Source: a virus
Taxonomy: Duplodnaviria > Caudoviricetes
Strand: one strand, 5' to 3'
IMG/VR virus record: IMGVR_UViG_3300022670_000398
Span: 1 to 41,785 of that record
DNA: 41,785 bases
Positions 2,034-10,747 of the stretch are shown one piece after another. A program made the translations under genes and the position numbers. Every line of letters starts with the position of its first letter. Position 1 is the first letter of the stretch. A model generated the notes under the pieces. It did no database searches. It saw nothing but the letters and a program-made list of their open reading frames with translations, and had not been told where the DNA came from.

Positions 2034-2134
2034 TGAAAAAGTTAAACCTAAAAGAAAGATTCTTAGTTTTAGCCTGGCTTTGTGGATTTGCCACAGCGTT
2101 TGCATTAATTAAAATTATTGGTGTGTGTTTATGA
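2033..2134 (+). CDS. Small single-TM protein, not in ORF track
   Basis: 33 aa MKKLNLKERFLVLAWLCGFATAFALIKIIGVCL; TAATG and ATGA coupling at both ends. Confidence 0.55.
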   Translation: MKKLNLKERFLVLAWLCGFATAFALIKIIGVCL

Positions 2135-3096
2135 GCGACGTAGATTTAAATAAACTTCAAAAGCAATTAAATGATCCATTCCCTGAAAGCGATATTGAAT
2201 GGAGAGTTCAACAAAGCGGAATGGCGCAAAAACCCTGGGCTATGGTTATACCTTATGTTACTAATCGAGCTATCACACAAAGATTAGATGATGTATTTGG
2301 CTTTATGTTTTGGGAGGATGTTTACCGGGAAACTCCACGCGGTATGCTTTGCGGGATTACTGTCCACTGTAATGGACGAAGTGTCACTAAATGGGATGGC
2401 GCAGAAATACCAAGAGCTTTAACCGACGAAGAAATAAAAAACGGTAAAAAACAAACTATAGACCCAGTTAAAACCGTACTTTCAAATTCAGAAAAGAGAG
2501 CTGCTGTGAAATTCGGTATAGGCCGTTATTTATATAATCTAGAAACCGCTTTTGCTAATTGTAAGGTTCTTGGTAGTCGCAGTGAGTGTTCTGAATATGG
2601 TAAATACATGAAAATAAAGCAGAGTGGTGGCGTTGTAATTCATGTGGAATGGATACCACCACCACTAGAATCATGGGCTTTACCTTCTGTCGAGTTCGAT
2701 TCATTGCTGGAAAAAATAACCAAAGCAACAGATATAATTATAATGAAAGGTGCTTACATTACCGCTTACAAATACGCCAGCTCTTTTAGTCGTGGTGATT
2801 TGGTTAAAAAAGCCGTTGAAGTAAAAGACGCTAAAAAAATAGAGCTGGAAAAGCAATCAAAAAAAGAAAACAACCAAGAAGAGAAAAAAATCCGTGAATG
2901 GCTTGAGCTCCAGGTCACAGACGAGATATTCAGCGCCAAAAATGAATCAGTGTTAAAACTCGCTAAAGTTAGAATCTCTAAGGGTTTAAAGGAAAAATCA
3001 TTAAACCATGATGTCGATATTATGGAAATGATGAAGGTTCTAGAAAATTACTACCAAAAACATTTAACTAAAATAAACAACGGAGAAAGATTATGA
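2131..3096 (+). CDS. Rad52/Rad22-family (Sak) single-strand annealing protein
   Basis: PFPESDIEWRVQQ, YVTNRAITQRLDDVFG and KRAAVKFGIGRYLYNL motifs; helical C-terminal extension. Confidence 0.9.
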   Translation: MSDVDLNKLQKQLNDPFPESDIEWRVQQSGMAQKPWAMVIPYVTNRAITQRLDDVFGFMFWEDVYRETPRGMLCGITVHCNGRSVTKWDGAEIPRALTDEEIKNGKKQTIDPVKTVLSNSEKRAAVKFGIGRYLYNLETAFANCKVLGSRSECSEYGKYMKIKQSGGVVIHVEWIPPPLESWALPSVEFDSLLEKITKATDIIIMKGAYITAYKYASSFSRGDLVKKAVEVKDAKKIELEKQSKKENNQEEKKIREWLELQVTDEIFSAKNESVLKLAKVRISKGLKEKSLNHDVDIMEMMKVLENYYQKHLTKINNGERL

Positions 3097-4250
3097 ATCA
3101 GATTGTAAAACAAGTGTATGCCAATGAAATGACCGAAAAAGGTTTAGCTGAATTAAGGCAGAAATACCCTGAAGATTTAAAGCTTGAGATAAGTGATGAT
3201 AATGTCTTTAAAGCTGCTAGAAAGACTCGAACCGAAAAAAACAAACTGGTCGAAGCGCTTAACCGCCGACGCTTGGATGTTACTGGTGAGATCAAAAAGT
3301 ATGGCGATAGTCTAATCGAGCAAATCGAAAGTATTTATGACGTGGTTGTTCTCCCATTTGAAAAGGAAGATAAAGTCCGGAAAGATAAAGCGGCTGAAGA
3401 AGCTAGAAAGCTTGAGGAATTACTCAATAAAGAAAGGGCTCAAATCAAAGAAATTCACGGATTTGTCGATATGTGCCGAGGTGAGGACTCTAAGTTCATC
3501 CAAGGAAAAATTGAAGCGGTCGATTTAATTGAAACCGATATCTTTCATAAGGATGTTATTCATGAAGCGATTGAGGCTAAAAAACAAACCTTGGTTGATT
3601 TATCTCAATTATTAAGTGATACCATCATCCGTGAAAAGGTTGAAGTTGAGCGGGAAGAGTTAAGAGTTAAGCAAGCTGAAGCCGATGAAAAACTCCGAAA
3701 AGCAGCGGCAGACCACAAAATAACCGACCGCATTAACGCTTTGAGAATGAAGCCTACTGATTTTATTGGCAAATCAAGTACAGTAGTCAACGCTCAAATT
3801 GTTTCACTATCCCGTTTTATGGTCACTAAAGAAGAGTTCGGCGATAGAATGTCTGAGGTTAATACAGTGGTAGAGCTCGTTATCAGCCAATTAGAACTCA
3901 TACGCACTCAAGCCGAGCAAATGGAATATATTGATAAGGTTGAAGCCGATAAAAAAGCTGAGTTGGAAAAGGTTGAATTGCCGGTTGAAGATTCGGAACC
4001 AGAACCTTCTGGTATGCTGTGCGGTACTTATGAAAAAGAGCCTGTTGATGATGTTCCTATTGAACAAACGGAAGATGCGCCAATACTAAATAGCCATGTA
4101 AGTAATATTAAAGGTTTTTTGGAGTGGTCTTCTTCAGACAGAGACTCAATAGAGGATTTTGGTCACCTGTTAATTTCTGACGATCCAAATCATAACGCTG
4201 AAGCTTTGGATAGTATTAGAGAAAACTTTAAAACTTATTGCGAAGATTAG
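3093..4250 (+). CDS. Coiled-coil recombination-associated protein (DUF1351-like)
   Basis: Long E/K-rich helices (ARKTRTEKNKLVEALNRRRLDV), coupled to the Sak gene. Confidence 0.6.
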   Translation: MNQIVKQVYANEMTEKGLAELRQKYPEDLKLEISDDNVFKAARKTRTEKNKLVEALNRRRLDVTGEIKKYGDSLIEQIESIYDVVVLPFEKEDKVRKDKAAEEARKLEELLNKERAQIKEIHGFVDMCRGEDSKFIQGKIEAVDLIETDIFHKDVIHEAIEAKKQTLVDLSQLLSDTIIREKVEVEREELRVKQAEADEKLRKAAADHKITDRINALRMKPTDFIGKSSTVVNAQIVSLSRFMVTKEEFGDRMSEVNTVVELVISQLELIRTQAEQMEYIDKVEADKKAELEKVELPVEDSEPEPSGMLCGTYEKEPVDDVPIEQTEDAPILNSHVSNIKGFLEWSSSDRDSIEDFGHLLISDDPNHNAEALDSIRENFKTYCED

Positions 4251-5881: not shown

Positions 5882-6328
5882 ATGAGTAACAAGGTTGCAG
5901 ATAAAATATCTAATTATTTCGAGATGGTAGAAAAGTCCAACCAGTTAATGGGTAAAGCAAACGATATTCTTTCGGGAGGACCAAAGAGTTTTTATTTTGA
6001 GCGTTTGAGGGAATATGCAGAAGCTTTATTTGAAAAATACGCACCCTTCAAAGAAGGCGATAGAGTTGAAATATCAGCCGAAATAGACACAGATAATGGT
6101 TGGTTCCATCATTCTCATTTTTTAAAAGAGGGGGAACAAGGCTTAGTTATGGAGGTTGATTACTACAAGAATAAATTTTTCGTAACAGTTGTCTTTGATA
6201 ATACGTCGTGGATATCCTCTACAGGCCCCGATAAAGGAAAAATAAACCCCATTCCATTCAAAGAGAGAGGCGGGTTTTGTATTGGAGAAGATAAGCTAAC
6301 GCTAATTAAACAGCCTGATTTGAGCTAA
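5882..6328 (+). CDS. Hypothetical protein (SH3/KOW-like PFKEGDRV motif)
   Basis: 148-aa ORF, AAGGT RBS. Confidence 0.7.
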   Translation: MSNKVADKISNYFEMVEKSNQLMGKANDILSGGPKSFYFERLREYAEALFEKYAPFKEGDRVEISAEIDTDNGWFHHSHFLKEGEQGLVMEVDYYKNKFFVTVVFDNTSWISSTGPDKGKINPIPFKERGGFCIGEDKLTLIKQPDLS

Positions 6329-6348
6329 TCACTCTAATAAGGTAAAAT
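6320..6348 (+). promoter_or_regulatory. Putative promoter for the peptide/membrane/lysis module
   Basis: TTGAGC-17 nt-TAAAAT. Confidence 0.5.
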
Positions 6349-6391
6349 ACCAACTCAACTAACCCAAGGTTCTTAAAATGAAGCAAAGGCA

Positions 6392-6550
6392 ATGTGCAAA
6401 CTCACTGTTTATCATAAGCGGTGGATCATCAAGAAAGGCGATAAAACCGTTCTTCTTGGCATTGGTACACCATCCGAAGCAATAGCAATCGCTAAGGCTA
6501 ACGATGTGGTATTGACTGAATTTGAGGACTTAAACGAGAGAGTAGCATAA
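6392..6550 (+). CDS. Small hypothetical protein, not in ORF track
   Basis: 52 aa MCKLTVYHKRWIIKKGDKTVLLGIGTPSEAIAIAKANDVVLTEFEDLNERVA; TAATG-coupled to the next ORF. Confidence 0.6.
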   Translation: MCKLTVYHKRWIIKKGDKTVLLGIGTPSEAIAIAKANDVVLTEFEDLNERVA

Positions 6551-6660
6551 TGTCAGATCATAAAGACGATCAAGATGAGAAAAAAGACGATAAAAAACCC
6601 AAACCTCAACCACAAGGTGGTAATGATGGAAGCTCTGATCCACCACCCAAGCCAAACTAA
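6550..6660 (+). CDS. 36-aa acidic/Pro-Gly-rich peptide, not in ORF track
   Basis: MSDHKDDQDEKKDDKKPKPQPQGGNDGSSDPPPKPN; TAATG overlaps at both ends. Confidence 0.7.
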   Translation: MSDHKDDQDEKKDDKKPKPQPQGGNDGSSDPPPKPN

Positions 6661-7142
6661 TGTTTGGTTATTTCTGTATAGTAATTTGTTTTATGTTGGC
6701 CCGAAATTCTCGTCCAGAGTATCGGGTCATTGCTTATTTATTGCTTATTGAATTTATAGCACATAAAGCAGCCTATGTTTTAGGCGATCAATTAACTTCT
6801 ATTTTGCGAGGCTCCCCGCTTTACTTAACCTATATAATTATAGAGTTAGTCGCAATTATTTATCTCAGACTCGTTATATCTCATTTTGTGATTATGACAT
6901 TAGTTTTTATTTCTTTAGTGTATAATGGCTTAATTGTGTCGCAATATTCTTATCCTATTTACGATTATGCAGAATTTTACAGTATATTAATGGGTATTGT
7001 GATGATTGCTGAGTTGATATATTTAGGGATGTTGACAGCTTATGTGGCAAATTTTCGCAGAAAACAAGGATTTATTAGCGCTAGCCATATCGATAGGCTG
7101 TTCTTTATACGGCGCAGGAATGCTGCATGGGGTTTATCGTGA
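6660..7142 (+). CDS. Multi-pass membrane protein (about 5 TM helices) with basic C-terminal tail
   Basis: Hydrophobic segments containing Glu/His/Asn; coupled to the peptide upstream and to the lysis-associated gene downstream. Confidence 0.8.
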   Translation: MFGYFCIVICFMLARNSRPEYRVIAYLLLIEFIAHKAAYVLGDQLTSILRGSPLYLTYIIIELVAIIYLRLVISHFVIMTLVFISLVYNGLIVSQYSYPIYDYAEFYSILMGIVMIAELIYLGMLTAYVANFRRKQGFISASHIDRLFFIRRRNAAWGLS

Positions 7143-7477
7143 AAGAAGAAGTAATCAAAAGGCCAGAATTCGCTCTCTATATGAAAATGAATGCAGAGAG
7201 CAACAGGACAACTGCTAAAGCTGTAACCGCCATCCAAAAGCAGGGCCAAGAAACCTTAAACGTACTGAAAGAATATACCATCCACAACAATCATAAACAC
7301 GATGAAACGAATAAACGTGTAACGCACCAGGGCGAAGAAATTACCGTTTTAAAAGAGGTTGTTGCAGCAAATGAGAAAATAACAAGCTTTTGGAATACGG
7401 TATTCAAATATTTGAAATATATTGTAATTGGTGGATTAACGGTTTTCGGCGGAATTCTTGTTAAAGGATGGTTATGA
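7139..7477 (+). CDS. Coiled-coil protein with C-terminal TM, lysis-associated (holin/antiholin-like)
   Basis: C-terminal YIVIGGLTVFGGILV helix; immediately before the endolysin; GTG 7139 start overlaps the upstream TGA (track start 7127). Confidence 0.6.
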   Translation: MKEEVIKRPEFALYMKMNAESNRTTAKAVTAIQKQGQETLNVLKEYTIHNNHKHDETNKRVTHQGEEITVLKEVVAANEKITSFWNTVFKYLKYIVIGGLTVFGGILVKGWL

Positions 7478-7833
7478 ATTACTTCAGCAAAAAAGAATTA
7501 AGTTGCCCCTGTTGCGGGGAAGATAAATTTAGCGGCGAAACACTGGAAAAGCTAAATAACATGCGTGAAGATGCTGCATTTCCAATGAATGTGACATCAG
7601 GATATCGATGCGAAGCGTACAATAAATTCAAAGGTTACACTCAAACTCACGCAACCGGCCAAGCGGTTGATATTGCTTGCACTCATAAAGCCGCCGTCGT
7701 TCTATTGAAATTAGCTATCAAATACGGAATGACAGGAATTGGAATTAATCAGAAAGGATCAAGACGTTTTTTACATTTTGATGATCTCGATCAAGTATCA
7801 GGCAGACCACGCCCACATATTTGGTCATACTAA
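7474..7833 (+). CDS. Endolysin, peptidase M15A-type Zn peptidase
   Basis: YFSKKELSCPCCG, TSGYRC, HATGQAVDI and FLHFD motifs. Confidence 0.9.
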   Translation: MNYFSKKELSCPCCGEDKFSGETLEKLNNMREDAAFPMNVTSGYRCEAYNKFKGYTQTHATGQAVDIACTHKAAVVLLKLAIKYGMTGIGINQKGSRRFLHFDDLDQVSGRPRPHIWSY

Positions 7834-7842
7834 GGTGATATT

Positions 7843-8043
7843 ATGAAATGGTTAAAGAAAAGACTTAAGAGCAAGACAATCTGGCTAACATCAATAGCCC
7901 CAGGTGTTTTGGCGTTTATGACCATGTATTCAGAGCCGCTAAAAGAAGTTTTACAAGGCAAGTATGAATATGTATTTCTAGCGTTTGGAATGCTTGCATG
8001 GGCCACTAGAGAAGCCACTAGCTCAAGCTTGGATGAAAAGTAA
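7843..8043 (+). CDS. Putative holin (2 TM)
   Basis: 66 aa, basic N-terminus (LKSKTIW), two hydrophobic helices, between endolysin and spanins. Confidence 0.7.
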   Translation: MKWLKKRLKSKTIWLTSIAPGVLAFMTMYSEPLKEVLQGKYEYVFLAFGMLAWATREATSSSLDEK

Positions 8044-8300
8044 TGTTTGCCACAATCAAAGCTAAAATCATTGCCGCAGCTGTCATTGTTGGCGCCATTA
8101 TGGTTCGATACATCAAATATTTGAGAGATAAAAACGCACGATTAGAACATAATGAAGAAGTCCGGGAAGAAATCGACGAAATCCACGAAAAACAAGTAAC
8201 CGATAGACAAGAGGCTCTTGAAAATGAAAAGCAAACGATTAAAAAACGGGTTAAAGCTAATTCTGGCAAGTCTCGTCGTGATAGGGCTAGCAAGTTGTAA
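8043..8300 (+). CDS. i-spanin (Rz-like)
   Basis: N-terminal TM followed by a charged coiled coil. Confidence 0.7.
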   Translation: MFATIKAKIIAAAVIVGAIMVRYIKYLRDKNARLEHNEEVREEIDEIHEKQVTDRQEALENEKQTIKKRVKANSGKSRRDRASKL

Positions 8301-8508
8301 GACCCTAGAAATCGCTCACGACCCACTAAATTGCTTACCACAACCTGAAACATCCTTAGTTGATAGACTAACGGACGATGAGCTTAATTCGTTCTCTGAC
8401 GAAGTATTTACCGTATTAGAGCTACACATTATCAGCTATCAAGAGCGCTTTAATACTCAATGCGATTTAATCAATAAACATAACCAGGCCCACGAAGGCG
8501 AAAAATGA
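8218..8508 (+). CDS. o-spanin (Rz1-like lipoprotein)
   Basis: Signal peptide with LASC lipobox and a Pro-containing mature part; overlaps the i-spanin in another frame. Confidence 0.7.
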   Translation: MKMKSKRLKNGLKLILASLVVIGLASCKTLEIAHDPLNCLPQPETSLVDRLTDDELNSFSDEVFTVLELHIISYQERFNTQCDLINKHNQAHEGEK

Positions 8509-9419
8509 AAATACTATTTCTTATAGGGCTGTTGTTTAGCTCAAATGTTACAAATGCGGCCAATATCAGTGATTATAGCCCGGCTGGTGACCTTATTAAT
8601 TTAACCAGGGTGGATGGTTCATCGGTAAATAATGTTAGTACCATTTTCTCCCACGATGGAAATATGGTTGCATTGCTAAATGGTGGTGGTCGTTTAATGT
8701 ATCGAACCGACATGGCCGATCCTAATACCGCTATTCGAGAAATTAATAGCAATATGGGCGGCTGTGGCGATATAGAAGGCGGCGTACAGTTTGGTAATTA
8801 TAATTTTTACGCCAACGAACAAACGCCAGCGACTATTTTTGTCATGCCTGGTCCAGATTCAGCTAGGAAATGCAGCCAAGCTATTGAGACTTTCACCTTA
8901 GTTGGTATGGACGAATCTAGCGGGAGCTTTGGCATTGAAGGGATCACAATTTTACCAGATGGGCGAATAGTTGTTGTTAAAGAAGCGGCCCCAGAAAGAG
9001 TGGCCGTTTTTGACTATGTTTCGGGAACGAATAGTTATACACCGGTTGATTTATTTCCGGTTCGGTCCGATTGTAATCGTTTAGGTGATATAGCGATAAA
9101 TCCAGAAGGTAATATAGTCGTTATTTGTAAAAGACAAAGAACGCTGCAAGAGTACACGATTGAAGGGGTGTTTGTTGCACAGCTTCCTATTCCAGAATTT
9201 CCACAAGCGGAAGGGCTTATGTTTTCAAATGGGTTACTTCACCTTGTTGGTGAGCCTAATCATTACCGGGTGTACAGTGCAACGCCCCCCATTTATGAAA
9301 CTTGTGAATTATCGGGAAGCATTCAAATTGATATTATTAATAATAAAGCGTTAGGATCAGGGACGGTTATTTGTTCTAACTTAAACGGAACGGTGATCAT
9401 TGATAGCGATGTTTTCTAA
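8505..9419 (+). CDS. Exported beta-propeller, SdiA-regulated/YjiK-like
   Basis: Signal peptide MKILFLIGLLFSSNVTNA; blade motifs DIEG, GIEGIT...VVVKE and PQAEGL...LVGEPN. Confidence 0.7.
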   Translation: MKILFLIGLLFSSNVTNAANISDYSPAGDLINLTRVDGSSVNNVSTIFSHDGNMVALLNGGGRLMYRTDMADPNTAIREINSNMGGCGDIEGGVQFGNYNFYANEQTPATIFVMPGPDSARKCSQAIETFTLVGMDESSGSFGIEGITILPDGRIVVVKEAAPERVAVFDYVSGTNSYTPVDLFPVRSDCNRLGDIAINPEGNIVVICKRQRTLQEYTIEGVFVAQLPIPEFPQAEGLMFSNGLLHLVGEPNHYRVYSATPPIYETCELSGSIQIDIINNKALGSGTVICSNLNGTVIIDSDVF

Positions 9420-10747
9420 TGTCTGTATCGATACTCAATACCGCAAAAGGAATTGGAGATAATAACACCAATAATCAAGTACCAAGTGCGGGTATCGGTG
9501 AGCGATACTGGGTAAAGGTTGTCGCAAAAGAAGGAGCATGGGCTAATATTCCGACAACGTTAACAGTTGCCGGGACCACGGATACTGTATTTGATTTAAT
9601 TACCTCTAATCAAAGTGCAGTAATGAAAGTGGCTATGTACGGTGTTAAGGAAACCGGGATAGGCACCGGGATCAGCACGGCAAATGGATCGATTACTTAT
9701 AATGCTGATGGGGACACACCTGGAAGTGCTGCGATTGTTGTTGCTTGCGTTGTGGCAGATGGCGTTAATCAAACTACACCATTTACAAATACTAACAATG
9801 TGGGTTTCTCATCAGATTCATCAGATAACACTGAAGATTGCCCGTTCACACTCGATGAAATTCTAGACGGGTTAGGGATAGCATTTGTTAGTTGCTCGAA
9901 AACTAATACAACATGGACTTTAACAGATAACGGTTATGCTAAAAATGGTGATGGTCAATGGGTACAAGGTTCAAATACTTCTGGTAATTGTGCTACAAAA
10001 TTAATTACAAGCCAATCATTAGGGCAGCTTACTACGTTATTAAGTGGTTTATCACCGCAGAAGACCGGCACCATTGGTATTATGCTTTTACCGTCTGGTG
10101 GCGGTGGAACACCATTAATTGTTCAAAATCTCACGCAGGCTCAAAACATCGATCAGCCGGCGTTAACTCAGACTAATTCTTTGTCTGCCAACAGTATAAA
10201 TCAATCCCAAACTATTGATCAACCAATACTGACACAACAAAATATTCTATCAACTGACGATATCAACCAATCTCAAACGATAGATAGCCTGATATTGACT
10301 CAAGCGCACATCTTATCAGTTAACGATATCACGCAAAGCCAAACGATTGATAATATCACGCTATCCGTTGCAGGGGCTTTACTGGTCAATAATTTATCTC
10401 AGACACAAACTATCGACCTGGCCAGTATCATTCAAAGTCACATATTATTAGTTAATGGTTTGGATCAATCACAATCTATCGATGAACCAGGTTTATCAAT
10501 TGGAATAACGGTTGACGATATAAACCAGGCGCAAACTTTGGACCTTGCATCACTGACCCAGGCTAATATTTTAAGCGTTGATAATTTAACTCAAGCGCAG
10601 CTTTTAGATAACGTCTATTCAGGTGAAATAGTAGTCGGATCCCATAAAGGTGAAGTTTTAGTATTTTCCGCTTATAATGGTATAATCACATCAACCAACG
10701 CTCACACCGGCGAAGTTAAAGTATTCAATGCCGTTGATATAACTTAG
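9419..10747 (+). CDS. Putative virion fibre protein with eight ~22-aa repeats
   Basis: G/T/S/N-rich beta N-terminal domain, GGGG linker, repeats LSVxxIxQSQTIDxxxLTQxxI. Confidence 0.65.
   Translation: MSVSILNTAKGIGDNNTNNQVPSAGIGERYWVKVVAKEGAWANIPTTLTVAGTTDTVFDLITSNQSAVMKVAMYGVKETGIGTGISTANGSITYNADGDTPGSAAIVVACVVADGVNQTTPFTNTNNVGFSSDSSDNTEDCPFTLDEILDGLGIAFVSCSKTNTTWTLTDNGYAKNGDGQWVQGSNTSGNCATKLITSQSLGQLTTLLSGLSPQKTGTIGIMLLPSGGGGTPLIVQNLTQAQNIDQPALTQTNSLSANSINQSQTIDQPILTQQNILSTDDINQSQTIDSLILTQAHILSVNDITQSQTIDNITLSVAGALLVNNLSQTQTIDLASIIQSHILLVNGLDQSQSIDEPGLSIGITVDDINQAQTLDLASLTQANILSVDNLTQAQLLDNVYSGEIVVGSHKGEVLVFSAYNGIITSTNAHTGEVKVFNAVDIT
10114..10616 (+). repeat. Degenerate ~66-bp coding tandem repeat, 8 copies
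   Basis: Eight QxQx(I/L)D cores at about 22-aa spacing (one unit is 20 aa). Confidence 0.85.

Follow-up and report, generated by a model that had tools for sequence, protein, structure and literature searches.

The window analysed here, the complete 41,785-base record of a phage of the class Caudoviricetes (IMGVR_UViG_3300022670_000398) with direct terminal repeats at its ends, carries ahead of its endolysin gene a conserved module of a short peptide gene, a gene for a membrane protein with five predicted transmembrane helices (5-TM protein), and an overprinted one-helix open reading frame (ORF-X), followed by a holin candidate with a helical, coil-like domain (coil protein). The gene set, its order, the joint inheritance of its parts, selection on ORF-X and a promoter-like box ahead of the module are observed across related loci. 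With a probability of roughly 45%, we read the module as an antiholin-type timing unit, in which the 5-TM protein and ORF-X would act on the adjacent holin and the peptide would be the partner of the 5-TM protein. The spanin genes of the window suggest a Gram-negative host. A public contig matches the window without any difference over positions 6300–7900 and possibly represents the same DNA. The full stretch was located in a single sequencing run, a marine sediment metagenome from which the window may derive.

The promoter and lysis genes discussed below (6320–8508) all lie on the plus strand. In the initial annotation, five genes chained by stop/start overlaps had been described, and every coordinate, overlap and motif given there was found in the sequence: TAATG joins ORF-A, a 52-amino-acid (aa) reading frame, to the peptide gene and again the peptide gene to the 5-TM gene, GTGA (7139–7142) links the 5-TM and coil genes, and ATGA the coil and endolysin genes. 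The gene list itself was incomplete, since two overlapping frames, ORF-0 (6378–6485) and ORF-X (7042–7218), had been overlooked. Fifteen distinct loci, including that of the window (L005), make up the close relatives, termed family 1; L011 was excluded from the counts as a duplicate of L002. Together with ten distant loci from cultured phages (family 2) they form a set of 25 loci. Between family-1 loci the module is kept while endolysin, holin and coil genes get swapped. Searches of Pfam, PHROGs and NCBIfam gave nothing above noise for the peptide, ORF-A, the 5-TM protein, ORF-X or a downstream 66-aa protein, and the ESM Atlas returned hypothetical clusters only, under 0.9. No relative was confirmed in GTDB genomes with the two patterns searched, and searching cultured phages directly by tblastn with family-1 proteins yielded no real match.

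The peptide gene (6550–6660) encodes 36 aa with a GG...DPP core, has its own Shine-Dalgarno sequence, and is present and chained to the 5-TM gene exactly as first quoted. Reading frames upstream of the 5-TM homologs were translated, as had been proposed, and in 15 of 15 family-1 loci an ORF of 15–45 codons, encoding a [DGK]PP peptide of 21–43 aa, ends at the 5-TM start; none of 83 control ORFs, i.e. the other ORFs of at least 120 aa within the same loci, is preceded in this way. In 13 of the 15, the distance from the peptide stop to the 5-TM start is −1 to +3 nucleotides (nt), and in 12 GG stands ahead of xPP. Linkage to lysis genes was found as well: the pairing of peptide and membrane protein beside lysis genes recurs in all 15 close loci and, judged by eye, in nine of the ten distant ones. 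The family-1 peptides are of low complexity, variable length and widely varying charge; motif, Shine-Dalgarno sequence and position are kept throughout, although the partner 5-TM proteins are down to 27–35% identical. The initial view of the peptide as a bipartite precursor, with a charged leader, PQGG and a Pro-rich core, stands in part. GG and the PP core recur, but only 5–8 residues precede GG in nine of the 12 GG peptides, so that the charged leader of the window's peptide is not general (a long charged leader occurs in three of the 12), and PQGG is not conserved. A cleavable precursor is not borne out, as the leader is unconserved, a hydrophobic N-terminal stretch of the Sec signal type is absent from all 15 peptides, and the cassette has no processing or export gene. 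In L014–L016 the peptides lack GG, and the membrane proteins encoded next to them lack E31 and H35, two residues described below. A lasso-peptide reading was rejected; the position of the ring acid is occupied by Lys in L002 and L010, and no cyclase gene was seen.

The 5-TM protein (6660–7142; 160 aa) contains the motifs IEFIAH, IIIEL, VYNG and IAEL within its helices, as noted initially, and the polar residues there turn out to be conserved among 71 homologs: E31 in 67, N89 in 70 and E118 in 67, along with H35 in 57, Y58 in 69 and Q, E or N at position 62 in 70. Profile searches retrieved 42 relatives and, with E ≤ 0.001 as the cut-off, 62 cluster representatives, none of them named. An AlphaFold2 model shows five long helices (pLDDT 89). 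Loop 1 is basic and the tail holds seven Lys or Arg residues, while loops 2 and 4 are uncharged or acidic, which by the positive-inside rule suggests an N-out/C-in topology. Since the conserved polar residues sit at the centre of helices 2–5 or in their outer half, this predicted topology would make the polar site reachable from the periplasm. Foldseek found no match in the PDB at E ≤ 0.001, and VIA-align of the model (best Z 10.2) retrieved generic helical bundles and no specific solved structure.

ORF-X (7042–7218) is read in the +1 frame and encodes 58 aa with one predicted membrane helix and a basic tail, overlapping the end of the 5-TM gene and the start of the coil gene. Its ATG, built from the 5-TM codons Tyr128–Val129, is present in 25 of 25 loci, and the helix (hydropathy 1.6–2.9) in all 24 complete copies; L007, which stops three codons into ORF-X, was left out of the latter count. 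M1, G26, G30 and E34 are invariant among 14 sequences, and the window's ORF-X is 50–52% identical to those of L001 and L008 in its own frame. The overlapped 5-TM codons have T at the third position at a frequency of 0.61, as compared to 0.31 upstream, with the higher value in 23 of 24 loci (Wilcoxon p 2.4e-7; the loci are related to each other, so that p-values are optimistic). Synonymous recoding of the 5-TM gene retains ATG, open frame and helix in only 0.02–14% of draws per locus, and residues 128–129 of the 5-TM homologs follow a NAT-G pattern in 60 of 71. Judged from these codon and recoding statistics, ORF-X is demonstrably under selection and forms a third part of the module. A frameshift fusion of the 5-TM protein to ORF-X is not favoured, because ORF-X opens with an ATG right behind a stop in all 25 loci. 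In L008 (1287–1761) and L009 (1648–2101), the 5-TM genes and peptides are near-identical and the coil proteins different; the exchange point lies inside ORF-X, whose frame is open in both.

A Foldseek search of viral models returned about twenty phage proteins of 136–178 aa (probability 0.3–1.0, 17 of them at ≥0.8), linking the 5-TM protein to the cultured phages PEi21, JD001, PEAT2 and VP16C. Their gene order is that of the window, namely peptide, membrane protein, ORF-X and a holin-like gene. The match in Edwardsiella phage PEi21 (Foldseek probability 0.82) is ORF-50, identified as the only 143-aa gene; the 41-aa peptide encoded ahead of it repeats DAGGRGKTR three times, an ORF for a single helix overlaps it in the +1 frame, and the next gene encodes an 89-aa protein that matches holins weakly. 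Family 2 was sampled as PEi21 and nine sequence relatives, tblastn having matched 78 and 93 phage records; its membrane gene also occurs in the cultured coliphage ZCEC13. In all ten, a gene for a membrane protein with four clear helices (4-TM), ORF-X and a holin-like gene (phrog_13707; weak holin matches at E 8e-4 to 5e-3) follow each other, and a basic AGG- or AGNG-type peptide precedes the 4-TM gene in nine by eye and in six by script. None of these peptides contains xPP, and as many as 44 nt separate their ends from the membrane gene. Compared with PHROGs 15451, 13707 and 36947 (PEi21 ORF-50, -51 and -49), the window shares the order of the genes, down to the overprinted ORF with its single helix, but it differs in having five rather than four clear helices, an acidic GG..DPP instead of basic AGGRGK peptides, and a coil protein in place of the two-helix holin-like protein. 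ExxxH is absent from the family-2 membrane proteins, and the window's 5-TM protein has no match in PHROGs at E ≤ 0.1, PHROG 15451 included. In the hhalign alignment, the invariant residues D51, N81 and Y97 of family 2 stand opposite E62, N89 and Y107 in the window's protein. Kinship of the two families is argued from fold, from residues in register and from an unusual arrangement of genes common to both, and not from a significant sequence score.

In PEi21 (L017, 27644–28484), JD001 (L019, 2381–3219) and PEAT2 (L021, 2393–3207), the module and the genes for endolysin and spanins are arranged head-to-head, the PEi21 endolysin being of the signal-arrest-release (SAR) type, and there is no holin nearby on the endolysin strand. 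The phrog_13707 protein at the end of the module is likely the holin of these three phages. In the peptide gene of phiPLPE (L022, 2341–2456), two AGGQGK units lie in different frames across an A-run, to be explained either by a sequencing error or by genuine frameshifting. A further probable Foldseek match is gp289 of Caulobacter phage phiCbK, picked as the only 166-aa phiCbK ORF with at least three hydrophobic helices; a family-1 profile search of phiCbK found nothing. Just before this 4-TM gene, gp288 (86 aa) ends in TGGEDKPDAPEVPPGG, a GG..KP..PP tail; the pair occupies L037, 2565–3336. Genes of the gp289 type occur in 26 Caulobacter phage records.

Among described proteins, a close counterpart is ArrA (gp138, 151 aa) of Vibrio phage ICP1, an antiholin required for lysis inhibition, the holin being TeaA (PMC7182436). 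Both ArrA and the 5-TM protein are multi-helix proteins of about 150 aa encoded beside a holin or holin candidate and a protein with a transmembrane segment plus coil, with similar helix spacing, and both have S17, an Arg five to six residues further on in loop 1, an Asn in helix 4 and a Glu in helix 5. The 5-TM gene lies beside a holin or holin-like gene, the window's own candidates being without family match, and a TeaA-type GTA_holin_3TM protein occurs in L004. ArrA differs in carrying a sixth hydrophobic stretch in frame and in a gene order other than the window's. NVP1101O_096 (152 aa) is an ArrA homolog (tblastn, 27%, E 2e-6), and it is probably identical with A0A2I7R1J0, a 152-aa Foldseek match of the 5-TM protein (probability 0.98, TM-score 0.50–0.53, E 0.23), given the equal length and an accession arithmetic that lands within two numbers. 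On these structural comparisons, the 5-TM fold is probably related to the ArrA antiholin family.

In the antiholin-type reading, the 5-TM protein and ORF-X would form a membrane unit that restrains the neighbouring holin, the five helices plus that of ORF-X presumably corresponding to the six hydrophobic stretches of ArrA. The holin would be the anchored coil protein encoded behind them (7139–7477, starting at GTG 7139 or at the in-frame ATG 7127). As initially annotated, this is a coil protein with a C-terminal membrane segment, joined through GTGA to the 5-TM gene; a single C-terminal anchor (with hydropathy highest at residue 98 of 116) and a helical cytoplasmic domain make it a candidate class III holin, although the window copy has no match in Pfam, PHROGs or NCBIfam. 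A shape of this kind is known from the pinholin gp63 of phage N4 (110 aa, helical cytoplasmic domain and C-terminal anchor), which is followed by the two-helix regulator gp62 (PMC12642591, in the text available); the coil and 66-aa proteins of the window resemble the two by shape only. The N4 system includes a SAR endolysin, and a 5-TM protein, a peptide or an overprinted gene is not described in that text. The peptide would bind the 5-TM protein and set the length of holin restraint. As it lacks an export signal, it would act inside the producing cell, or reach infected neighbours only upon cell burst. In the latter case, lysis would be inhibited according to the density of lysing neighbours. 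We consider it unlikely that released peptide enters the periplasm of neighbours, docks there in an outward-facing polar pocket of their 5-TM protein and delays the holin via ORF-X; with the same low expectation, the acidic GG..DPP and basic AGGRGK peptides could be viewed as two dialects of such signalling and ArrA as a peptide-less relative.

Several observations weigh against this interpretation. The accession arithmetic was fitted post hoc, with an anchor chosen by length and a 35-letter alphabet chosen for fit; with 36 letters, calculated by hand, it misses by about 530. In hhalign, family 1 compares weakly with ArrA (E 0.22 for the single sequence, 0.66 for the profile), and the values for family 2 against the ArrA family (E 0.021 over 69 columns) and for family 1 against family 2 (E 0.093) are not significant. 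The Foldseek E values of 0.1–3 have to be read with the ease in mind with which small helical bundles match. None of seven ArrA loci examined has an adjacent peptide or an overprinted ORF-X, and no tested likeness connects the sixth helix of ArrA with ORF-X. The window's own ORF-X is weak: its hydropathy of 1.61 is the lowest, third-position T is 0.42 versus 0.45, the window being the one locus of the 24 without a rise, and the recoding P is 0.094. The joint loss of GG and of E31 and H35 is confined to one clade and counts as one event, because L014–L016 form a single related group. CP-T1 has the 4-TM gene, ORF-X and the holin-like gene, and a peptide was not found beside them. The phiCbK pair gp288/gp289 lies about 110 kb from the lysis genes and is without ORF-X or holin, so that peptide and membrane protein are able to stand alone. 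Mu gp19 and gp20, for which nothing but topology had suggested holin and antiholin roles, turned out not to be needed for lysis (PMC9239132).

Features of the peptide gene also fit a translational leader, in which xPP slows the ribosome and the stop/start overlap sets the output of 5-TM protein, ORF-X and holin. Polyproline stretches stall ribosomes, with EF-P involved. The xPP motif of all 15 close peptides, their tight spacing to the 5-TM start, their low complexity and variable length, and a second out-of-frame upstream ORF at the head of the operon (ORF-0, 12 of 12 loci) would agree with such a role. However, family-2 peptides do without xPP, contain as many as three copies of the AGGRGK unit, as in PEi21, and may end well before the membrane gene, and the loss of GG coincides with changes in the membrane protein, which makes a leader quite improbable. 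Little more than a near-neutral spacer ORF is implied if the 5-TM protein, ORF-X and coil are ordinary holin/antiholin parts; the wide variation of the peptide, and the CP-T1 and ArrA loci without a peptide beside the membrane gene, would be accounted for in this way, but the motif, Shine-Dalgarno sequence and position maintained in 15 of 15 loci despite the divergence of the 5-TM proteins render it very unlikely.

The conserved E31, H35, N89 and E118 within the helices, the joint loss of GG and E31/H35, and the repeated cores of the PEi21 peptide, reminiscent of a multi-core precursor, could likewise be taken to indicate an intramembrane peptidase or exporter (AgrB- or CPBP-like), with cleavage of the peptide at GG setting its core free to serve as a signal. 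We assign this a low likelihood, as H35 occurs in only 57 of the 71 homologs, family 2 has no ExxxH, the cassette is without a second receptor or regulator, and most peptides have very few residues before GG. Glutamic peptidases of the CPBP/Rce1 type carry EE..R, F..H and H..N motifs; the 5-TM protein conserves only ExxxH, N and E, and no such enzyme is among the PDB matches listed. Hallmarks of agr systems are an AgrB-family protein and a peptide with a thiolactone Cys/Ser core. No AgrB match was obtained in Pfam or NCBIfam, the family-1 peptides have no conserved Cys, and neither a histidine kinase nor a response regulator was found among the neighbours scanned, which comprise part of the window's ORFs. 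Finally, the module might merely adjoin the lysis genes as a membrane accessory unit with its own promoter, serving superinfection exclusion or control of the host envelope. It has its own −10 box, the phiCbK pair is distant from lysis genes, and no endolysin is annotated within the 2.5-kb flanks in VP16C and CKB-S1; yet on every contig that extends far enough, ORF-X is followed by a gene for a holin-like or C-terminally anchored protein, and the fold is probably linked to an antiholin family, so that this possibility, too, appears rather remote.

Compared with known systems, the antiholin-type reading has partial parallels. Arbitrium/RRNPP and agr loci likewise have a small peptide gene adjoining the gene of its partner (PMC10075063). 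They belong to Gram-positive bacteria and their phages, whereas the spanins of the window point to a Gram-negative host; the window has neither a signal peptide nor a TPR/HTH receptor, and the neighbour of the peptide is a 160-aa 5-TM protein. Lysis inhibition in T4 depends on holin T and the antiholins RI and RIII, RI being soluble, located in the periplasm and believed to detect the DNA of superinfecting phages. There, too, a separate gene product sets holin timing by outside conditions, but neither a polytopic receptor nor a peptide takes part. Lysis inhibition has been observed in N4 as well, in response to a signal not yet known (both according to PMC12642591).

The promoter at 6320–6348 (TTGAGC at 6320–6325, 17-nt spacer, TAAAAT at 6343–6348) is present as initially described and is of the sigma-70 type. 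Its match to the consensus (9 of 12 positions) is not by itself above chance, a scan with the whole consensus having found 10 sites where 17.8 were expected; the conserved part is the −10 box. A TA[TA]AAT box is situated 46–49 nt 5′ of ORF-A in the 12 family-1 loci having that gene, and 33–36 nt 5′ of the peptide gene in the three without it. Overall, the box precedes the module in 15 of 15 close loci and in 19 of 24 loci, against 5.5 expected. ORF-0 (6378–6485; 35 codons) overlaps ORF-A out of frame and owns the first Shine-Dalgarno-like AAGG of the operon. In all 12 loci with ORF-A, its ATG lies 11–17 nt before that gene at a constant frame offset, and the frame runs for 30–37 codons; there is no conservation of sequence, and recoding gives modest support for the length (P 0.03–0.32 per locus). 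ORF-0 may be regulatory, damping or coupling the translation of ORF-A. The latter (6392–6550; 12 of 15 family-1 loci) encodes a predicted soluble accessory protein of 52 aa with a beta-beta-beta-alpha-beta fold (pLDDT 91) and invariant W11, L21, G23 and G25 among 11 aligned sequences. A fold search gave no specific match (best Z 5.2); a search for ORF-A was positive in the L001 record and negative in the L002 record, CP-T1 and ICP1.

Downstream of the coil gene, the initial assignments of an M15 endolysin and of a spanin pair were both corroborated. The endolysin gene (7468–7833, starting at 7468 or 7474) matches Peptidase M15 (PF08291, E 3e-10) and phrog_894 (endolysin, E 4e-24), and an i-spanin (8043–8300; phrog_739, Rz-like, E 0.005) overlaps a lipoprotein o-spanin (about 8224–8508, lipobox LASC). 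Between them, the separate two-helix holin of the initial annotation exists as a 66-aa two-helix gene (7843–8043), but has no family match; in L004, its slot is occupied by the GTA_holin_3TM protein. Right behind the spanins, a 304-aa protein (8505–9419) has a signal-peptide-like N-terminus and a match to SdiA-regulated proteins (PF06977, E 1e-5). It is followed by a 442-aa protein (9419–10747) without family match, the second half of which consists of about ten QxQxLD-type repeats. A Rad52/Erf-like annealing protein and a DUF1376 replication protein (2125–4250 and 13–807) give the window a lambdoid-like appearance, and no integrase or repressor was found among the part of the window's ORFs scanned.

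A description of the module was not found in the literature searched, to which subscription papers and the ArrA-homolog supplement of PMC7182436 did not belong, nor is it contained in the accessible portions of PMC12894885, PMC11657625 and PMC13577005. Peptide signalling in phages of Gram-negative hosts did not turn up in the same literature, and how crowding is sensed for lysis delay outside T4 is an open question, stated as such for N4 (PMC12642591). A look-alike module has gone unannotated in cultured phages infecting Klebsiella, Edwardsiella, Pectobacterium, Vibrio, Aeromonas and Iodobacter (93 matching records), making direct testing possible. For phages whose lysis cassette seemed holin-less, a probable holin can now be named, and deletions that reach the membrane gene's 3′ end have to be interpreted with care, because they also strike a second gene, ORF-X. 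The module is real and conserved, and it would represent an apparently undescribed variant of holin control with a putative role in peptide signalling. It supplies a defined peptide, a putative partner in the membrane whose conserved residues can be listed, an overprinted gene for a single helix and a candidate for the holin.

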